NCBI GenBank assembly: GCA_013166775.1
Contig: JABLTJ010000003.1
Span: forward strand, 149,950-213,949
Reading direction: 5' to 3'
DNA from: Promethearchaeati archaeon
GTDB taxonomy: Archaea; Asgardarchaeota; Heimdallarchaeia; Heimdallarchaeales; Heimdallarchaeaceae
Length of the DNA: 64,000 nucleotides
The position numbers and the translations under genes are program-made. Of this stretch, positions 28,842 to 37,143 are shown in pieces (position 1 is the first letter of the stretch; every line of letters starts with the position of its first letter). Under the pieces are notes generated by a model. The model did no database searches and had not been told where the DNA came from. It saw only the letters and a program-made list of their open reading frames with translations.

Positions 28842-30350
28842 TTAGAATTTCTTTTTTTCTTGCTTACAGATAATTTGAGCAACAGTTCTCCCGCTCATAA
28901 AAGCGTTTGGTACTCCTCCACCAGGTACGGTCCAATGTCCTATCATAAAGAAATTTGCTAGATTTGGTAGTTCTTTTTTTATTGGTTTATTTTCAAAAAG
29001 ATTCTCATTTGCCCAACCTTGAGTAGAACCTTGCCAATTATTTGTATATCTATGGAAAGTAGCAGGAGTAGCAACATCAATCATATCAACATTTTCCTTA
29101 AGATTCTCGAAATGGTCATTCAACATATCAATAATTTGGGATGCGATTTCAGTTTTGATTTTCTTGTATTCTACTCTATTCTTAGCTCTTAACTCTCTCC
29201 AATATTCAAAATTTCTTGTTGAAAGTTCTACAATGAACAATGTTTTACCTACTGGTACTAAAGGAGTTTCAAAGTTGAATATTCTCAATTTAAGAAGATC
29301 AAACACATTTCCATCAGGAGTCTTAAATGGTTTTTCAAGATTTATGAAAAAAGTTTGTGATTCATCTTTATACTCTTTATTTACTCCAACTGAGATCAAG
29401 ATCATTGAAGGATTTAGATCAGCTTTGTTGTAAACCTTGCTTAGTTTTTCATACAGATATTGTCCATCTAACAATTCGAAGAGAGTTGAATACCCATCCA
29501 TTGCACTAATAACAATATCTGTGGAAATATATTCTCTATTTTCTAATGTGATTCCGGTTACTTTGTCTTTCTTATTTTTTTCATCATAAGTTGTGTTAAT
29601 CTTAGTAACTTTCGATTTATAGTGAATTTTTCCACCTAATTCTAGATATCTTCTTTCGAATTGTTTACTAAAGTTTAAGGAACCCCCTACTGGGAATCCT
29701 GAACGCTTCAAATCCATTTCTGTAAAAACAAGTATCTCAAAGAGAACAGGTGACAAGAAACTTCTCACAGCTTCCTTTATAAAAGGGTGCTTAAACATTT
29801 TCGAAAATTCTTCAGCAGTGATTTTTTGCCATTTCTGCATAATTTTCAAAGCTGGAAGTAATTTAACCATTTTTAAGTAATCAAATATATTATAAAATTC
29901 CATAGGTTTTCCAGCTATTATACTAAAAGCATCCATCTTCTGGAGTTTTCGTATATCTTTGATATAATCTTCAATAATAGGGGAGTCTTCAGGAGAGATT
30001 TCTTTCATATACTTCTCTAATTTCTCCAAATTGTAGTATTTGATGAATCTTTTCTTGTCTCTAGTAATAATGACAACTTCTTCTCCATCAAAAATTTCTA
30101 GATTCTTCATGTCTATTATTTCATCCCATAAATCGTACATAGGATGATCTGGGGAAGAACCTACTAAACCATGAATACTACCATCTATTGTGTAATCTTT
30201 CCTTTTCCAAGAAGTTACACATCCTCCAGGGAGATTGTGCAGTTCGTAAATTTCTGTTTCAAATCCATGCTTCTGTAGATAGCAACCTGCTGTTAAACCT
30301 GCAATTCCAGCTCCAATAATAATGATTTTTCTTTGTGTCACATAAATCAC
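28842..30350 (-). CDS. Phytoene desaturase-family FAD-dependent oxidoreductase
   Basis: IIGAGIAGL, PGG...W..KDY.IDG, ATPATF.RYT and GHWTVPGGGVP motifs. Confidence 0.9.
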   Translation of the reverse strand: MIYVTQRKIIIIGAGIAGLTAGCYLQKHGFETEIYELHNLPGGCVTSWKRKDYTIDGSIHGLVGSSPDHPMYDLWDEIIDMKNLEIFDGEEVVIITRDKKRFIKYYNLEKLEKYMKEISPEDSPIIEDYIKDIRKLQKMDAFSIIAGKPMEFYNIFDYLKMVKLLPALKIMQKWQKITAEEFSKMFKHPFIKEAVRSFLSPVLFEILVFTEMDLKRSGFPVGGSLNFSKQFERRYLELGGKIHYKSKVTKINTTYDEKNKKDKVTGITLENREYISTDIVISAMDGYSTLFELLDGQYLYEKLSKVYNKADLNPSMILISVGVNKEYKDESQTFFINLEKPFKTPDGNVFDLLKLRIFNFETPLVPVGKTLFIVELSTRNFEYWRELRAKNRVEYKKIKTEIASQIIDMLNDHFENLKENVDMIDVATPATFHRYTNNWQGSTQGWANENLFENKPIKKELPNLANFFMIGHWTVPGGGVPNAFMSGRTVAQIICKQEKKKF

Positions 30351-30940
30351 ATACTTTGAATTAAATTGTCGATTAATATTTCTAGAAATTCATCTCTTTG
30401 CTTTTTATCATAGAAATCATAACCTGTTGTTTTTTGAATAACATCTGATCTGATAAATGCAAGTTGAGCACTAGATAATAATGTGTGTGCGATAATCATG
30501 ATTTCCTCTTCTGGTTTATTATCTCCATAGATCTCTCTGAAAATCATCATGTATTTATCTATTGAACGTGATGTATTATCATCCACAGCAGGATTCAAAT
30601 AATCGTGAATCATGGATATTCTTCCAAAGAGAGGATTGGTATCTATTAAGTCTCCTGTCCCCTTTAACATTATTTTAAGCTTATCAATTGAGGGCATTTT
30701 CATTGTTTCATAAATCGCATCCCAACGATCAATAATCATGTTAGTATCATAACGAATAGCTTCGCTGATAAGTTTGTCTTTAGTTCTGAAATGATAATTG
30801 ATGATTCCTACTCCCTTGATACCAGCTTTTTGTACAATTTTACGAACTGAAACCTCATTTGTGTTTCCAGCTTCTCTCAATAATTCTAAAGTAGCATCTA
30901 TGATTTTCTTTTTAGTATTTTCACTGCTCTTGCTTTTCAT
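30347..30940 (-). CDS. TetR/AcrR family transcriptional regulator
   Basis: TKKKIIDAT...SVRKIVQKAG....INYHFRTKDKL; likely start MKSKS at 30940. Confidence 0.9.
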   Translation of the reverse strand: MKSKSSENTKKKIIDATLELLREAGNTNEVSVRKIVQKAGIKGVGIINYHFRTKDKLISEAIRYDTNMIIDRWDAIYETMKMPSIDKLKIMLKGTGDLIDTNPLFGRISMIHDYLNPAVDDNTSRSIDKYMMIFREIYGDNKPEEEIMIIAHTLLSSAQLAFIRSDVIQKTTGYDFYDKKQRDEFLEILIDNLIQSM

Positions 30941-31344
30941 ATTGAACACCGTTCTCGAACAGTTTTTCATCTTTAGGCCATCTGAATACTAGTAATGCTA
31001 TGATCACAATTCCACTAACCACAGGTCCTGCTACCCAAGAAATTGGTTCTGGTGCTAATCCATCCCATAAGAACAAGTATGCAATCAGAGAGATGAATGA
31101 GGCTACAACTGCAACAATTCTCCATTCTTTCCGTTTCAAAAAAATTATAATTCCTGCTGCAACAAATCCAATTATTGTTAGACTCCAAAGCATAAGACCA
31201 ATAATTGTAACAGCTGTTTTCCCTAAAGCGTCAGATAATATCCATGATTGTCTAGTCCATCCAACATAATCACTTACTAAATTCAAACATTATATGTATT
31301 AAACCATGAATTATAAGAAAGGCTGATAATAATTTTCTTTTCAT
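30921..31344 (-). pseudogene. Small membrane protein with a frameshift near codon 20 (paralog of 36733-37143)
   Basis: ATG 31344 gives MKRKLLSAFLIIHGLIHIMFEFSK*; the continuation YVGWTRQSWIL is in another frame; the paralog has IIHGL...GWSRKSWLL in one frame. Confidence 0.7.
30942..30969. promoter_or_regulatory. Second, degenerate double operator directly upstream of the tetR start
   Basis: TTGAACA-C-CGTTCTC and TCGAACA-G-TTTTTCA. Confidence 0.55.
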
Positions 31345-32487: not shown

Positions 32488-32725
32488 TGTAGACTACCTA
32501 CTGTGATGAAAAATATATTTAGATAATTTAACGCTATACTAAGATAGGATATTTAAAAAATTTGAGTAAATTAGTTTACATATTTTTAGAATTTAGATTT
32601 TAAGATTAGAAAATTAAAAGATCTTGAGATGAATTTAAAATTCCAAAATTTCTAAGTATTGAATGAGTTCGATGAATTTTCGGAAAAAATTTTAAATCCA
32701 ATAACGAATTACTCTTGATACAGAT

Positions 32726-33385
32726 ATGAGTTTTGTTTTAATGAAAGTACTTGAGTCTGCTCCTCATAGATATGACAAAGGGATAAAGATTCTCACCTTG
32801 GGAAAGATTGACAAAGCATACGACAGATTAATTGAAAGTATAAAGAAAGATGACAATACTTTAGATATAGGTTGTGGAACTGGAATGTTATCTTTTAGAG
32901 CTGTTCTCAAAGGAGCGAAAGTTACCGGTATTGATATTAATCCAGAGATGCTTGAAATTGCAAAGAAAAGAGTTAATGAGCTTGAAGTAAAAGATAAAAT
33001 TGCGTTCCTTGAGATGGGAGTTGCAGAACTGGATCATTTTGAGAATGATTCTTTTGATGTAATAATGAGTGGTCTCTGCTTCTCAGAATTAAGTGATGAT
33101 GAAATTTCTTTCACATTAAATCAAGTCAATCGAATCTTACGTAACGAAGGAAAATTTCTACTAATTGATGAGATAAGAAGTAAATCAATAGTTAAGAGAA
33201 TCATTAACTGGTTTCTGAGGATACCTCTTGTTGTAATAACCTATATTCTTACTCAAACTACTTCAAGAGCCTTGAAAAATATTGAAAAACGAATAACAGA
33301 GTCTAATTTACTAATACAATCTCGTAGGTCTAATTTCCTAGATAATTTTGTAGAATTTATTATAATTAAGGGGGATAAGAAATGA
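32726..33385 (+). CDS. cpaM: Corrinoid-protein-associated class I SAM methyltransferase (CpaM-like)
   Basis: N-terminus MSFVLMKVLESAPHRYDKGI; LDIGCGTG; overlaps the HgcAB-like gene. Confidence 0.75.
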   Translation: MSFVLMKVLESAPHRYDKGIKILTLGKIDKAYDRLIESIKKDDNTLDIGCGTGMLSFRAVLKGAKVTGIDINPEMLEIAKKRVNELEVKDKIAFLEMGVAELDHFENDSFDVIMSGLCFSELSDDEISFTLNQVNRILRNEGKFLLIDEIRSKSIVKRIINWFLRIPLVVITYILTQTTSRALKNIEKRITESNLLIQSRRSNFLDNFVEFIIIKGDKK

Positions 33386-34524
33386 ATATTTCAAATTATA
33401 TTTATTATGGTTTTTTCACAATTATTGAGACACTTCTAAGAATGTTTCCCTTTCCAGCTAAAACAGGATATCAAAAAGTAGGAAAACCAAATGAAGACTC
33501 TCCTGTCTTGTTAACGTGTAATTTTCATCTAACAATCTTAAGACTCAAGAAAGCTACTAGAGGTTTGAACTACCATCTTTTAATTGCAAACAGTAAGGGA
33601 ATAAATGTTTGGTGTGCTGCTACAGGTGGTAGTTTAAACAATCACTCTGTGATTTCAGTCATAAAAACAAGTGGAATTGAGAACAAAGTAAATCATAGAA
33701 AAATAATTTTACCTCAATTAGCTGCTTCTGGAGTAGAATCAAAAGTGATACAACAAAATGTTGGATGGAAAATTCTTTGGGGACCAGTTAACGCTCAGGA
33801 TATTCCTGAGTTTTTTGAATCAAGCTTTGAAAAAACCAATGAAATGAAACAAGTGGAGTTTAGATTTGTTCAGAGAATTGAAATGGCAATCATGTGGATT
33901 TTTCTTGCCACTGCTGTTTTGATGCCTATTTGGGGACCTTTGTTTAAACTTGAAGCAGCATTCTTATTGGCACAGATTTGTTTTATCTATTTCTTAGTTC
34001 TAATTTCTTTCCCAATCTTTGAAAGAATCTTTCAGAAAGAAATTGAAAAGAAGAAAGCGTTTTTCACTATAGGGAATCTTGTTGTTCTTTTAATAAATTT
34101 AGTTTATGCTGCTATTGGTGTAGTTTTGTATGTTATAGTATATCAGAAGGATTATTCGTGGATTTTACTTAGGTGGAGTATAGTATCATTCCTACTAGTT
34201 CTATTGGTAAATATGGAACTTAAAGGATCATCTTCAACTTACAAAAGTGATTCTCATGCAGATAAGCTGTATGATATAGCAGTAGATTTGGAGAAATGCA
34301 AAGGAACTGGAATTTGTGTTGATGTTTGTCCTCGTAATTGTTATGTTTTGGATACTGAACAGAAGAAAATAACTATGCCGAGACAAAAATTCTGTGTTCA
34401 ATGTGGTGCCTGTATTGTCCAGTGTCCTTTTGATGCACTCTATTTTATGAATAGAAAAGGAGACATAATCCAGCCTGAAATAGTAAGAAAGTTCAAACTA
34501 AATTTAATGGGAAAAAGAACCTGA
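33382..34524 (+). CDS. HgcAB-like fusion protein: CdhD-type corrinoid domain, TM helices and ferredoxin
   Basis: G.P..DSPVLLTCNF, GINVWCAATGG, HRKIILPQLAA.GV and WGPV.A.DIP; CKGTGICVDVCP and CVQCGACIVQCP. Confidence 0.9.
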   Translation: MNISNYIYYGFFTIIETLLRMFPFPAKTGYQKVGKPNEDSPVLLTCNFHLTILRLKKATRGLNYHLLIANSKGINVWCAATGGSLNNHSVISVIKTSGIENKVNHRKIILPQLAASGVESKVIQQNVGWKILWGPVNAQDIPEFFESSFEKTNEMKQVEFRFVQRIEMAIMWIFLATAVLMPIWGPLFKLEAAFLLAQICFIYFLVLISFPIFERIFQKEIEKKKAFFTIGNLVVLLINLVYAAIGVVLYVIVYQKDYSWILLRWSIVSFLLVLLVNMELKGSSSTYKSDSHADKLYDIAVDLEKCKGTGICVDVCPRNCYVLDTEQKKITMPRQKFCVQCGACIVQCPFDALYFMNRKGDIIQPEIVRKFKLNLMGKRT

Positions 34525-34564: not shown

Positions 34565-35713
34565 ATGTATAAAATTTCTCAATATTCTGTGATGGAAATG
34601 AGAAAAAATCAGAACAATATTCTTGTGTTTTTCATAATTAGTATCTTAATAATATCTTCTTCAATCCTTCTTATCTACATGAACAAAATTAATTTTCAAT
34701 CAAATGAAGAACCAATCGCAGATTCCAATTGTTCAATTTTTACAGTAAAAGATGAAACTTCAGTTTTCTTTGGAAATAATGAAGATGAAGGTGGAGATCG
34801 TAAGAGGACAGATATGTGGTTTGTTTGTGCTGCTGATAATCAATCTTATGGTTGTGTTTATGTAGGTTTTGCTGAGAACGAACCTGGAGGGGATGATGTT
34901 GATGGTATTGAAATTGGAGGTATGAATACAGAAGGACTCTGTTTTGATGGAAATGGTATCTTTCCAGGAGAAGATGTCAATTATAGAGAAGATTTAGGTT
35001 CTCATTATTATTATCTAACAAGTAGAGGGATAATTTTACGCGAATGTGCAACTGTTGAAGAAGTAATTGTTTGGTATCAAACCCACAATATGGGAGGAAC
35101 TTGGTGGGGACAAACACATTGGGCTGATAAAACTGGAGCTGCAGTTGTCGTGAGTCCTGCAGTGGATGGTAGCATAGCGTTCACTCGAATATCAGGAGAT
35201 TTTCTGATATCAACAAATTTCAACGTTGATCATCCTGGTGGAACCTATTATCCATGTCCTAGATTTAATTTTTTGACAACAAGATTAACTGACATAATAA
35301 CAACAGATAATGTCTCCATAGAGACTTGTGCAAACCTATTGGAAGCAGTTCATGTTCCTCAAACATTTGCATATGCAGGAACTGTTTACTCGAATGTTTA
35401 TGATTTAAAGAAACAAATGATTTACCTTTACGTTCAAGGTAATTATGACGATGTTGTAACTCTAAATCTTTCTGCTGAATTAGCTAAGGGTTATCATAGT
35501 TATATAATAGAAAACTTGGAAAGTTCTACTCCTGAGGAGCTATATAATGTCTCTAATCTCTGGCCAATAGAACCAAAGCTCAGTATTTCTTCTCTTGCTA
35601 TTCTTCTTACGCTAGTTGCTGTCCCAATTTTCATTTCTGCTGGATACTGGATTTTTGTAACAAGAAATATTCGTAAAGTAGATGATAAAAGAGGTAAGAA
35701 AGATGGTAATTGA
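34565..35713 (+). CDS. Membrane-tethered Ntn hydrolase (C45/choloylglycine hydrolase-like)
   Basis: SN-CSIF nucleophile; FGNNED, GGMNTEGL, STNF and TVYSNVYDL motifs; TM helices at both ends. Confidence 0.8.
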   Translation: MYKISQYSVMEMRKNQNNILVFFIISILIISSSILLIYMNKINFQSNEEPIADSNCSIFTVKDETSVFFGNNEDEGGDRKRTDMWFVCAADNQSYGCVYVGFAENEPGGDDVDGIEIGGMNTEGLCFDGNGIFPGEDVNYREDLGSHYYYLTSRGIILRECATVEEVIVWYQTHNMGGTWWGQTHWADKTGAAVVVSPAVDGSIAFTRISGDFLISTNFNVDHPGGTYYPCPRFNFLTTRLTDIITTDNVSIETCANLLEAVHVPQTFAYAGTVYSNVYDLKKQMIYLYVQGNYDDVVTLNLSAELAKGYHSYIIENLESSTPEELYNVSNLWPIEPKLSISSLAILLTLVAVPIFISAGYWIFVTRNIRKVDDKRGKKDGN

Positions 35714-36704
35714 GTTGCAAAAAACCTCATCAATTTTACTGGCTATCTTGATTCCAATTATAATTCTTGTACTAACAGTTATTATTAGTTATCTAGCTAA
35801 AAAAGAAAGTAATTCGAAAATAAATAGAGTTGCAAAATTCCTAACAGAACCTTTCCAATTTAAACCTTTATTGAAAGATTCTGACTTGTCAGAACTACCA
35901 GAAATTAAGACACGAAAGATTATTGGAAAGGAAATACTTTTCCGTTTAAATCTTGTATATTATATTATCGTGATCTTTCTCCTTTGCAGTTTCTTAGGAG
36001 AGCTCTATCAAGTTCTTGCTGATCGTACATTATTAATAATCTTCACAAATATTGTATCTGATTCAGCTCCTTCCAGCTCTATCTGGTCAACAATTGTAAT
36101 TGAATCACCTTTTAGTTCTGGTTTTAGAGGATTTCAACCATGGTATGGAATGTATCCCAATCCAATACTAGAATCTCAGTACTACCATCAAACATGGGAA
36201 TGGATTTTTTACACTAGTGGAGTGTATAACAATTTCTTTCCAAATATGCAATATCACTTCTTTGGAGAATCTGTGAATACATTGGTGTTTTCATTTTCAG
36301 GATTGCTTATGGTTTTCATGCTAATAATAGGAACAATATTTCTTCTCCCATTGCTTTGGAAAGAAATACGAAAATCCTTTCTAGCTTCGTTATTCTTTTT
36401 GGAAGCAGGAATGATAATCGGAACAAAAGGAGTTTTTTCAAGCTTCGCTCAAGCTTGGAAAATAGAGGTAAACGATCAATTATTGCAGTATGGTGCGATT
36501 GCTATATCAAGAGCTTCAATTGCTGCAGAATGGGTGATTCTAGGACTAATCCCTGTTATAATAGGATTCTTCTTCTTCTTCCTCTGGATAGGAAAAAGAA
36601 TCTGGAAAGTTCACTACTCACAAACAGAATCAATAAGTAAGAAGACATTTCTGATTGCTGTAAGTATAAACTATTTTGTAGCACTCATTGTTCTTCTTTT
36701 CTAA
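35682..36704 (+). CDS. Polytopic membrane protein of unknown function (start probably about 35703)
   Basis: About six hydrophobic helices; overlaps the upstream gene. Confidence 0.65.
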   Translation: MIKEVRKMVIELQKTSSILLAILIPIIILVLTVIISYLAKKESNSKINRVAKFLTEPFQFKPLLKDSDLSELPEIKTRKIIGKEILFRLNLVYYIIVIFLLCSFLGELYQVLADRTLLIIFTNIVSDSAPSSSIWSTIVIESPFSSGFRGFQPWYGMYPNPILESQYYHQTWEWIFYTSGVYNNFFPNMQYHFFGESVNTLVFSFSGLLMVFMLIIGTIFLLPLLWKEIRKSFLASLFFLEAGMIIGTKGVFSSFAQAWKIEVNDQLLQYGAIAISRASIAAEWVILGLIPVIIGFFFFFLWIGKRIWKVHYSQTESISKKTFLIAVSINYFVALIVLLF

Positions 36705-36732: not shown

Positions 36733-37143
36733 TTATCCGAAGATGATAATATCTGAAGGCCATTTATCAATCAGTAGTGTAATTATGTTAACTATAGCAA
36801 TTATAGGACCCAAAATGAAGTATTTTGGTTTTGGTTTTAATTCATTCCAGAAGAATGCAAATGCAAAAAGTGAGATGAATGAAGTAATGATATCAATTAT
36901 TCTCCACGATTCATTCTTCGAGAGAATTACAATACCAGAGACAACAAAACCAACCATAACTAATATCCAGAGAACAATACCAACAATCTTTACTATTTTC
37001 TCATCAAGGAATCTATCTAGTAACCATGATTTTCTTGACCATCCAAAATATCCTTCTTCCTCAGGTAGTTTAATATAAATTAGAAACATAAAGAAAACCA
37101 ATCCATGAATTATGAGAAGAATTCCAAAAAGTATGTGCAACAT
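36733..37143 (-). CDS. Small 4-TM membrane protein
   Basis: IIHGL...SWLL motif; four hydrophobic segments. Confidence 0.75.
   Translation of the reverse strand: MLHILFGILLIIHGLVFFMFLIYIKLPEEEGYFGWSRKSWLLDRFLDEKIVKIVGIVLWILVMVGFVVSGIVILSKNESWRIIDIITSFISLFAFAFFWNELKPKPKYFILGPIIAIVNIITLLIDKWPSDIIIFG

Follow-up and report, generated by a model that had tools for sequence, protein, structure and literature searches.

What does a SAM-dependent methyltransferase do when its gene runs directly into that of a membrane protein resembling HgcA and HgcB, the two proteins of mercury methylation, joined in a single chain? Such a gene pair is present in the window, the 64,000-nucleotide stretch of a Heimdall-group archaeal genome (contig JABLTJ010000003.1) that was analysed here; among the sequencing runs listed, the stretch was found in three DNA runs, all from one marine-sediment study, and in no RNA run. 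A first-pass annotation had read the pair as a coupled SAM-methyltransferase/corrinoid-FeS module distinct from mercury-methylating HgcAB, and this reading is borne out by the pairing of the genes across genomes, the HMM scores, the cap motif and the clade in which the protein falls. The locus is a typical representative of the catalogued module composed of CpaM (NF043040) and the HgcAB-like fusion protein (NF043039), and the partnership with a methyltransferase is already present in the NCBIfam name of CpaM, corrinoid protein-associated methyltransferase.

Both genes are intact open reading frames on the plus strand (Table 1), and their overlap, noted in the first-pass annotation, is read directly in the sequence: the TGA stop codon of cpaM (33383-33385) shares an ATGA with the ATG of the HgcAB-like gene starting at 33382, and a GGGGGA stretch is located 7-12 nt upstream of this start. 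The ATGA overlap is retained in close relatives (gap 0 in the locus comparison). Upstream of cpaM, a candidate TATA-like box would point to transcripts with a short leader or none at all. The other genes surrounding the pair in the window (nadE, TetR, amine-oxidase-like, C45-like and membrane ORFs) were not kept beside it among 109 loci, with the sole exception of one distant nadE match; no relative shares the local setting of nadE, C45-like gene and membrane ORFs, and a TetR-controlled layout thus does not apply to this copy.

Table 1. Features of the cpaM/HgcAB-like locus, in coordinates of the window.
Feature	Position	Strand	Basis
Candidate archaeal TATA-like box TTTTAAAT, ~30 nt 5' of the cpaM ATG	32690..32697	+	sequence alone
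cpaM (219 aa), class I SAM methyltransferase associated with a corrinoid protein	32726..33385	+	NF043040, AF2, Foldseek
SAM-binding motif I, L46-D-I-G-C-G-T-G53 of CpaM	32861..32884	+	conservation, 66 orthologues
Family-specific CpaM segment R165-x-P-L-x3-T-Y-x-L-T-Q177	33218..33256	+	conservation; low AF2 confidence
Translational-coupling junction: GGGGGA Shine-Dalgarno-like stretch and ATGA stop/start overlap (33382-33385)	33370..33385	+	sequence
HgcAB-like fusion protein (380 aa) with corrinoid, four-helix membrane and two-cluster ferredoxin domains	33382..34524	+	NF043039, AF2, Foldseek, tree
Corrinoid-binding domain, residues ~20-150, like the CFeSP large subunit C-terminal domain	33439..33831	+	PF03599, PDB matches
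Cap helix N75-V-W-C78-A-A-T-G-G83	33604..33630	+	conservation
Membrane domain, predicted TM helices 162-187, 189-221, 230-254, 259-282	33865..34227	+	AF2 secondary structure
Conserved linker D279-L-x-G-S-T-P-x-x-K-S-x-x-H-x-D294, TM4 to ferredoxin domain	34216..34263	+	conservation
Ferredoxin motif 1, C306-x5-C312-x3-C316-P-x2-C320, Thr309 at the place of the second Cys	34297..34341	+	sequence, conservation
Ferredoxin motif 2, complete CxxCxxCxxxCP, C338...P349	34393..34428	+	sequence, conservation
Conserved basic C-terminal tail R369-K-F-K-L-N-L-M-G-K-R379	34486..34518	+	conservation

The first-pass annotation had proposed to judge the coupling by whether the gene pair is conserved elsewhere, and it is kept almost without exception. 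CpaM was found upstream of the HgcAB-like gene and on the same strand in all 76 loci compared, spread over many bacterial and archaeal phyla, with a spacing within 300 nt in 73 of them and of 322-684 nt in the other three; among Asgard loci the same arrangement was found in 28 of 29. At genome level, the two genes occur in 88 versus 80 of 399 Asgard genomes, the mismatches being mostly at contig edges. As a control, a CpaM-like neighbour was present at none of 67 canonical hgcA loci. The two partners also occur naturally in single-ORF CpaM-HgcA-HgcB proteins of 582-657 aa, and CpaM-HgcA-like fusions without the ferredoxin domain exist as well. These data show that the pairing is nearly obligatory. 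Clustering of the ORFs at 80 loci revealed no third conserved gene beside the pair; the further ORF clusters that recurred there proved to be shadow ORFs lying over the pair itself, and 6 of the 80 loci have an ICMT-like ORF downstream of it. This self-contained unit of two genes is present in many anaerobes, both bacterial and archaeal: among 185,579 species-level genomes at least 428 carry it, as does roughly a fifth of the Asgard genomes sampled.

CpaM of the window matched NF043040 with 267 bits (cut-off 180, E=1e-79), and its AF2 model (pLDDT 83.9) displays a Rossmann methyltransferase fold, for which Foldseek returned Coq5 (4obw, TM 0.76-0.79) as the closest structure. In the SAM-binding motif I, the glycines G49 and G51 never vary among 66 CpaM orthologues, at least 90% of which also keep D47, C50, T52 and G53. 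The likeness to the Coq5/UbiE C-methyltransferases extends over the whole chain of 4obw, N-terminal helices included, but at 18% identity, and CpaM is set apart from them by conserved segments not shared with them, at the N-terminus and at RxPL...TYxLTQ. In the latter, R165, P167, L168, T172, Y173 and Q177 are conserved among the same 66 orthologues, and residues 172-179 have a pLDDT below 50; the segment R165-Q177 may be a candidate docking or lid element. UbiE/MenG was the top match among the models other than CpaM, with 74 bits, and CpaM did not reach the cut-offs of this family (TIGR01934, 74 versus 158 bits; NF001244, 72 versus 216 bits), while its scores with the ArsM models were far under the cut-offs.

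The HgcAB-like protein matched NF043039 over profile positions 2-350 with 416 bits (cut-off 285, E=1.6e-124). Its corrinoid-binding domain is recognized by PF03599 (residues 23-144), next to Fer4 matches for the ferredoxin part, and residues 31-146 match PDB entries 2h9a, 4c1n and 4djd. The AF2 model found the HgcAB model 9a0b and CFeSP in Foldseek, with the corrinoid domain superposing on 2ycl_A at an rmsd of 2.8 over 131 columns. The CFeSP large subunit of the Wood-Ljungdahl pathway (AcsC/CdhE) shares this fold (rmsd 2.8-3.3 over ~130 residues, 21-32% identity), but is soluble, has no Cys cap ligand and receives its methyl group from methyl-THF via MeTr; the fusion protein did not reach the cut-off of NF003195 (90 versus 306 bits). 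In the cap helix, V76, W77 and C78 are invariant and N75 is conserved in at least 90% of 94 homologues, Cys78 being presumed, by analogy with HgcA (PMC11588087), to be the lower axial Co ligand. Four transmembrane helices are predicted, and since their number is even, the corrinoid and ferredoxin domains would lie on the same side of the membrane. The linker between the fourth helix and the ferredoxin domain is composed of columns that are invariant or nearly so, with a pLDDT below 50 at residues 282-294, and the basic C-terminal tail conserves R369, K372, L373, N374, G377 and R379.

The cap NVWCAATGG, the first ferredoxin motif with three Cys and the missing Cys tail, which the first-pass annotation had pointed out, are all read in the sequence, but what it had called "non-canonical" is the consensus of NF043039 and not peculiar to this gene. 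The cap matches the family-typical NVWC[AGS][AS][TA]G[GD] and is the most frequent variant of the family (55 of 120). Motif 1 reads C306-KG-T309-GI-C312-VDV-C316-P, followed by CPRNC with Cys320; its second Cys is replaced by A, T, I or V across the HgcAB-like family, and 114 of the 116 proteins in the two-gene clade combine this loss with CPxxC. Motif 2 (C338-VQ-C-GA-C-IVQ-C348-P) is complete, and the Fe-S cysteines of the protein are invariant among homologues. The [3Fe-4S] cluster that had been proposed for the first site is plausible for three Cys, and 7Fe ferredoxins are among the weak PDB matches of the fusion protein, but the proposal overlooked Cys320, which is invariant, co-varies with the loss of the second Cys of motif 1 and may be a substitute ligand.

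The phylogenetic comparison with HgcA and HgcAB fusions that had been suggested in the first-pass annotation places the protein with the fused proteins: in an unrooted tree from a quick IQ-TREE search, built with no CFeSP outgroup, it lies inside the two-gene HgcAB-like clade (SH-aLRT 100), apart from canonical HgcA (99). The single-chain CpaM-HgcA-HgcB proteins and the CpaM-HgcA-like fusions, from Asgard archaea and Chloroflexi, form the sister clade of the window's protein (support 93). The single-chain forms have the same three functional parts in the same order as the window's pair, but with the methyltransferase covalently fused, with a complete CxxCxxCxxxCP in motif 1 and no extra Cys, and often with a second Cys in the cap (NVWCAACGG). 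Podar 2015, Gilmour 2018, Capo 2022 and Lin 2023 refer to the NF043039 protein as "fused HgcAB"; together with CpaM (NF043040), it has the architecture found here, including the cap variant, the three Cys with CPxxC, the basic tail and the upstream methyltransferase; no substantive difference separates it from the window's Heimdall-group copy. Close relatives with 87-88% identity are already deposited, with the NCBI name "HgcAB-like fusion protein" (87%). In the literature searched, the phrase "corrinoid protein-associated methyltransferase" was not found and the matches listed for "CpaM" were all unrelated; the mercury-methylation papers examined do not describe a methyltransferase gene paired with fused hgcAB.

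From homology with HgcAB and from the gene fusions, we give slightly better than even odds (a probability of roughly 0.55) to a standard CpaM + HgcAB-like module in which a methyl group would be passed from SAM by CpaM to the Co(I) of a Cys-ligated corrinoid, and from there to a membrane acceptor. The ferredoxin domain, probably with one three-Cys-ligated cluster and one [4Fe-4S] cluster, would reduce to Co(I) a cobamide seated beneath the Cys78 cap helix in the corrinoid domain at the N-terminus. CpaM, as a Coq5/UbiE-like class I methyltransferase, would dock on the corrinoid domain, to which it is covalently fused in some lineages, and place a SAM-derived methyl group on Co(I), yielding a Cys-ligated methyl-Co(III); the methyl group may then be handed over, at the four-helix membrane domain, to an acceptor that is probably not Hg(II). 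Loading of a corrinoid by SAM has a precedent in HgcAB itself, since with the purified enzyme SAM, and not methyl-THF, methylates Co(I), and the cobalt is ligated by a Cys sulfur, Co-S(Cys) (PMC11588087). Chemistry does not demand a second enzyme for this step, as canonical HgcA is able to react with SAM unaided (PMC11588087), so that CpaM could have another target. The closest fold of CpaM, Coq5, is that of a small-molecule C-methyltransferase and speaks against SAM loading. We know of no class I Rossmann methyltransferase that methylates the cobalt of a protein-bound corrinoid. A three-Cys cluster, probably [3Fe-4S], would be a weaker reductant than the Co(II)/Co(I) step requires. CobS was not found in the window's genome (88.7% complete), and the cobamide would thus come by import or salvage. 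It is possible, though doubtful, that the module represents a distinct class of SAM/cobamide methylases, independent of radical-SAM chemistry and ancestral or parallel to mercury methylation, in which a class I methyltransferase loads a Cys-ligated, membrane-anchored corrinoid and the methyl group is delivered with inverted polarity (as carbanion or radical) to an acceptor other than mercury in or at the membrane, for example a lipid, natural product or metal ion.

Given its kinship with HgcA and HgcB, the module could alternatively be a fused hgcAB that does methylate mercury. Canonical HgcA and HgcB (NF040863/NF040864; P. mercurii ND132) share with the window's protein the corrinoid domain, the Cys cap helix with its NVWC core, the membrane domain and the ferredoxin partner, and SAM is their likely methyl source (PMC11588087). 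We nevertheless consider a mercury methylase highly improbable. The protein does not reach the canonical HgcA cut-off (NF040863, 161 versus 275 bits), belongs to a separate clade, and its cap fails the high-stringency pattern N[VI]WC[AS][AGS]GK of Capo 2022. Canonical HgcA and HgcB are two polypeptides, the first cluster site of canonical HgcB is unlike the three Cys plus CPxxC found here, and no dedicated methyltransferase stands beside canonical hgcA at any of the 67 loci. No stand-alone HgcB carrying a Cys pair at its C-terminus is present: the ferredoxin is fused and has no Cys downstream of motif 2, and its basic tail lies where canonical HgcB has a Cys-rich one (with CC in 40 of 50). Canonical hgcA was not found in the window's own genome (88.7% complete). 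The statement in the first-pass annotation that the HgcAB fusions assayed so far had not been shown to methylate mercury agrees with the literature, as cultures of the fused HgcAB carriers P. furiosus and M. methylutens, the latter with a protein (P0088) 50% identical to that of the window, gave no methylmercury above controls, although Podar 2015 cautioned that negative whole-cell assays are not proof of enzymatic inability. The methyl acceptor of the module is probably not Hg(II), and because the family has no Cys tail like that of canonical HgcB, thiophilic metalloid acceptors gain no positive support.

The remaining alternatives concern the role of CpaM and of the cobamide. CpaM could serve for reductive activation only, rescuing Co(II) by reductive methylation together with the ferredoxin domain while another compound is the routine donor. 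Methionine synthase (MetH) offers the model, as its SAM-dependent reactivation traps reduced cobalt, and the same logic would help here if the three-Cys first cluster site of the two-gene clade holds a higher-potential [3Fe-4S] cluster that makes Co(II) reduction uphill. Co(II) has been discussed as an off-cycle state of HgcAB, but SAM is the catalytic donor in that system (PMC11588087), no other methyl-donor enzyme is conserved near the pair, and a permanent CpaM-corrinoid fusion in many lineages better fits a stoichiometric catalytic partner than an occasional repair; a purely activating role is therefore unlikely. Direct methylation of a small molecule or lipid by CpaM, in the manner of Coq5/UbiE, with the HgcAB-like protein catalysing another cobamide-dependent reaction of that substrate (a second methylation, reduction or dehalogenation), also has a low probability. 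It would agree with the best folds, which are Coq5 and small-molecule methyltransferases, with the UbiE/MenG match, with the ICMT-like ORF following some pairs, and with the dechlorination of CCl4 by HgcAB that a 2026 preprint reports. However, the UbiE/MenG and ArsM scores are all far under cut-offs, the pairing is absolute while the wider gene context is not conserved, and the conserved segments particular to CpaM show disorder when the protein is modelled alone, as would a surface for protein docking. To our knowledge, quinones are absent from many carriers (Pyrococcus, methanogens, Asgard archaea), which also counts against direct methylation. Very unlikely, finally, is a module that conditions cobamide by reducing and methylating imported cob(II/III)amide, so as to supply methylcobamide to other enzymes from a chaperone-like Cys-on site. 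The genome has no detectable CobS, yet encodes proteins with B12-binding domains, the HgcAB-like protein is located in the membrane, and B12 chaperones use Co-S ligation (PMC12501144). Against it, no transporter gene is linked to the loci, and the reading is purely inferential. Cobamide-synthesising organisms such as methanogens also carry the family, which again argues against this role.

For the module as a whole, the window's copy brings nothing new beyond one more Heimdall-group occurrence. The module is nevertheless widespread and, of all relatives of the methylmercury-forming enzyme, the closest one, and metagenomic surveys of hgcA must therefore exclude it. Its substrate, once found, would tell whether protein-bound cobalt is open to methylation by a Rossmann methyltransferase, and what HgcA-type chemistry evolved for.

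The cpaM and HgcAB-like genes lie on the same strand with the stop codon of the former and the start codon of the latter sharing an ATGA, and a GGGGGA sequence is located 7-12 nt before the second start; every sequence detail described in the first-pass annotation was confirmed. In profile searches, CpaM matched the model NF043040 (corrinoid protein-associated methyltransferase CpaM) over its full length with 267 bits (cut-off 180), and the second protein matched NF043039 (HgcAB-like fusion protein), also over its full length, with 416 bits (cut-off 285), while failing the models for canonical, mercury-methylating HgcA (161 bits versus a cut-off of 275) and for the corrinoid iron-sulfur protein CFeSP (90 bits versus 306). 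Fused HgcAB proteins have been described since 2015 and are known from Asgard archaea (PMC4646819; PMC10083202). Heimdallarchaeota MAG proteins with 87-88% identity are already deposited, some under the name 'HgcAB-like fusion protein', and the methyltransferase partnership of CpaM is recorded in NCBIfam; a literature search found no paper discussing this partnership of the HgcAB-like protein. The source genome, an Asgard MAG from marine sediment (88.7% complete), carries each of the two genes as a single copy, and no canonical hgcA was found in it. The pair is an ordinary member of the already known CpaM plus HgcAB-like family.

Features of the cpaM region (positions within the window)
Feature	Position	Strand	Remarks
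Flavin amine-oxidase/phytoene-desaturase-like gene	28842-30350	-	probable operon with TetR gene, 28842-30970
TetR-family regulator	30347-30970	-	overlaps start of amine-oxidase-like gene
Small membrane protein, paralog 1	30921-31286	-	
cpaM	32726-33385	+	219 aa; NF043040 match
HgcAB-like fusion gene	33382-34524	+	380 aa; NF043039 match
C45-like membrane-anchored protein	34565-35713	+	NF040521 (C45 autoproteolytic acyltransferase/hydrolase), 31 bits, below cut-off
Polytopic membrane ORF	35682-36704	+	340 aa; overlaps end of C45-like gene
Small membrane protein, paralog 2	36733-37143	-	

A 5.4-kb segment comprising nadE, cpaM, the HgcAB-like gene, the C45-like gene and the membrane ORF is flanked by the two small membrane proteins, paralogs that share 43% identity over 104 aa and have no confident Pfam assignment (a single weak MurJ match, below cut-off). 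No obvious terminator was seen in the 40-nt gap between the HgcAB-like and C45-like genes; neither the C45-like gene nor the 340-aa ORF is conserved beside the pair at other loci. The TetR and amine-oxidase-like genes probably form one operon, which displays no link to the cpaM pair in the window.

The first-pass annotation had regarded the two genes as one module, a view that a non-conserved pair would have contradicted; the pair is in fact strongly kept in other genomes. In 28 of 29 Asgard loci, CpaM is located immediately upstream in the same orientation, the exception being L029, whose genome is 72% complete. When 185,579 species genomes were scanned for the sequence pattern, at least 428 proved to encode a relative; 80 loci were returned, and CpaM was found upstream on the same strand in all 76 that had enough upstream sequence (73 within 300 nt, three at 322-684 nt). 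Represented among these loci are Heimdall-, Hydrotherm- and Methanofastidiosia-type archaea, Methanococcoides, Desulfobacterales, Dehalococcoidia, Anaerolineae, Aminicenantes, Calditrichota, Ignavibacteria, Marinimicrobia, Zixibacteria and others. As a control, 80 canonical hgcA loci were retrieved by their cap NVWCAAGK, and none of the 67 with upstream room had a CpaM-like neighbour. Among 399 sampled Asgard genomes, CpaM was present in 88 and an HgcAB-like protein above cut-off in 80, nearly all mismatches being contig edges or fused forms. No third conserved gene was found across the loci, and the genes that adjoin the pair in the window do not reappear next to it in any of 109 loci; cpaM and the HgcAB-like gene make up a self-contained two-gene unit. 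In six of the 80 loci an ORF for a small ICMT/PEMT-like membrane methyltransferase follows the HgcAB-like gene (e.g. L063, 4966-5535).

At least 14 Asgard species genomes encode single ORFs of 589-655 aa with the order CpaM-HgcA-HgcB, and the protein database holds many more, together with a large group of CpaM-HgcA-like proteins of ~500-600 aa that lack the ferredoxin domain (e.g. in Anaerolineae). Because these fusions are repeated and invariably in the same order, there is strong comparative evidence that CpaM and the corrinoid domain would function as a single machine. In a quick, unrooted maximum-likelihood tree of the corrinoid and membrane region, the window protein falls inside the clade with separate cpaM and fused HgcAB-like genes (SH-aLRT 100), whose sister is the single-chain fusions (support 93); most CpaM-linked clades form one group (97), separate from canonical HgcA (99).

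Single-chain proteins from L040, L042, L044, L045 and L126-L135 often have a second cap Cys (NVWCA[AS]CG[GK]) and, unlike the two-gene clade, often a full CxxCxxCxxxCP motif 1. Loci L139-L145 (Asgard genomes G373, G326, G157, G240, G140, G070 and G327) encode fusions of a CpaM-like methyltransferase with an HgcA-like protein (548-583 aa, cap NVWC[AG]ARG[ID]), followed by a separate HgcB-like ferredoxin of 109-117 aa with a Cys-rich tail (...CCG/CCC); both halves score below every NCBIfam cut-off, and six of the seven group weakly (71) with canonical HgcA in the tree, L144 forming a long branch of its own close to the CpaM-linked clades. Three unfused genes are found at L136-L138 (Asgard genomes G058, G066 and G071), encoding a 214-aa CpaM-like protein, an HgcA-like protein of 321-327 aa (cap NVWCSAAGG) and a 72-aa ferredoxin.

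The cap NVWCAATGG (residues 75-83), a three-Cys ferredoxin motif 1 (C306-x2-T-x2-C312-x3-C316-P) and the absence of a Cys tail, which the first-pass annotation had noted, calling the cap non-canonical, are all seen in the window sequence, motif 2 being complete (C338-x2-C-x2-C-x3-C348-P) and followed by no cysteine. Comparison with 120 homologues showed that these traits are the norm and no peculiarity of this copy: the cap consensus is NVWC[AGS][AS][TA]G[GD], the window form being commonest (55/120), 117/119 have A, T, I, V or M at the second Cys position of motif 1, and Cys after motif 2 is absent in 106/116. An invariant extra cysteine, Cys320 (C316-P-R-N-C320), had been overlooked. Across the superfamily, absence of the second Cys co-varies with presence of the CPxxC cysteine: this combination occurs in 114/116 members of the two-gene clade (window included), and the reverse holds for 56/56 single-chain fusions and related full-motif matches and for 50/50 canonical HgcB, of which 40 carry a CC tail. 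A three-Cys site followed by CPxxC resembles 7Fe ferredoxins, several of which appear among the weak PDB matches of the HgcAB-like protein, so a [3Fe-4S] cluster at the first site is plausible; alternatively, Cys320 could restore the fourth ligand. The linker GSTPxYKSxxHxD is conserved across the family and the basic C-terminal tail RKFKLNLMGKR is almost invariant. A few members of the two-gene clade (P0033 and P0043) carry an extra CCLxC tail past the GKR end, which recalls the HgcB Cys pair.

The AF2 model of CpaM (pLDDT 83.9) displays a class I Rossmann methyltransferase fold, with yeast Coq5 as best PDB fold match (TM 0.76-0.79, 18% identity). Its sole low-confidence parts are the two most CpaM-specific conserved segments, the N-terminal LMKxLESxPxRYDxG and RxPLxxxTYxLTQ (residues 165-177), as would fit elements that become ordered upon partner contact. 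In the HgcAB-like model (pLDDT 77), residues ~20-150 form a corrinoid domain, residues 162-282 contain four TM helices and residues 297-371 make up a ferredoxin domain; its top Foldseek match is the published computed HgcAB model 9a0b, and next comes the CFeSP large-subunit corrinoid domain (~130 residues superposed with an rmsd of 2.8-3.3). The even number of predicted helices would place the corrinoid and Fe-S domains on one membrane side.

Several functions can be considered for this module. A role as a true mercury methylase is the least likely, since the HgcAB-like protein fails the HMM, motif and clade tests and lacks the Cys tail usually found in canonical HgcB, and since neither P. furiosus (no methylmercury beyond controls) nor M. 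methylutens, which has a protein sharing 50% identity with that of the window, produced methylmercury. CpaM might instead be the direct methyltransferase of a small molecule, a role compatible with its Coq5-like fold, with the corrinoid protein carrying out a different step, for example dehalogenation; HgcAB is reported in a 2026 preprint to dechlorinate CCl4. CpaM could also serve reductive reactivation only, in the manner of methionine synthase, which would be attractive if the potential of the three-Cys cluster is high, or the module may condition cobamide for use by other enzymes.

Methyl transfer from SAM to cobalt by CpaM, to which we assign a probability of about one in two, is modelled on canonical HgcAB. 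The purified complex contains cobalamin and two [4Fe-4S] clusters, SAM, but not methyl-THF, methylates its Co(I), over 50-fold faster than it does free cob(I)alamin, and its methyl-Co(III) form shows Co-S(Cys) ligation (PMC11588087). In the most likely scheme, which we infer throughout by homology with HgcAB, the ferredoxin domain would bring the cobamide to Co(I), CpaM would deliver the SAM methyl group to Co(I), and an acceptor at the membrane domain would receive it from methyl-Co(III). The logic would be one of polarity inversion, in which SAM supplies CH3+ whereas a methylcobamide with Cys ligation can donate a carbanion or radical.
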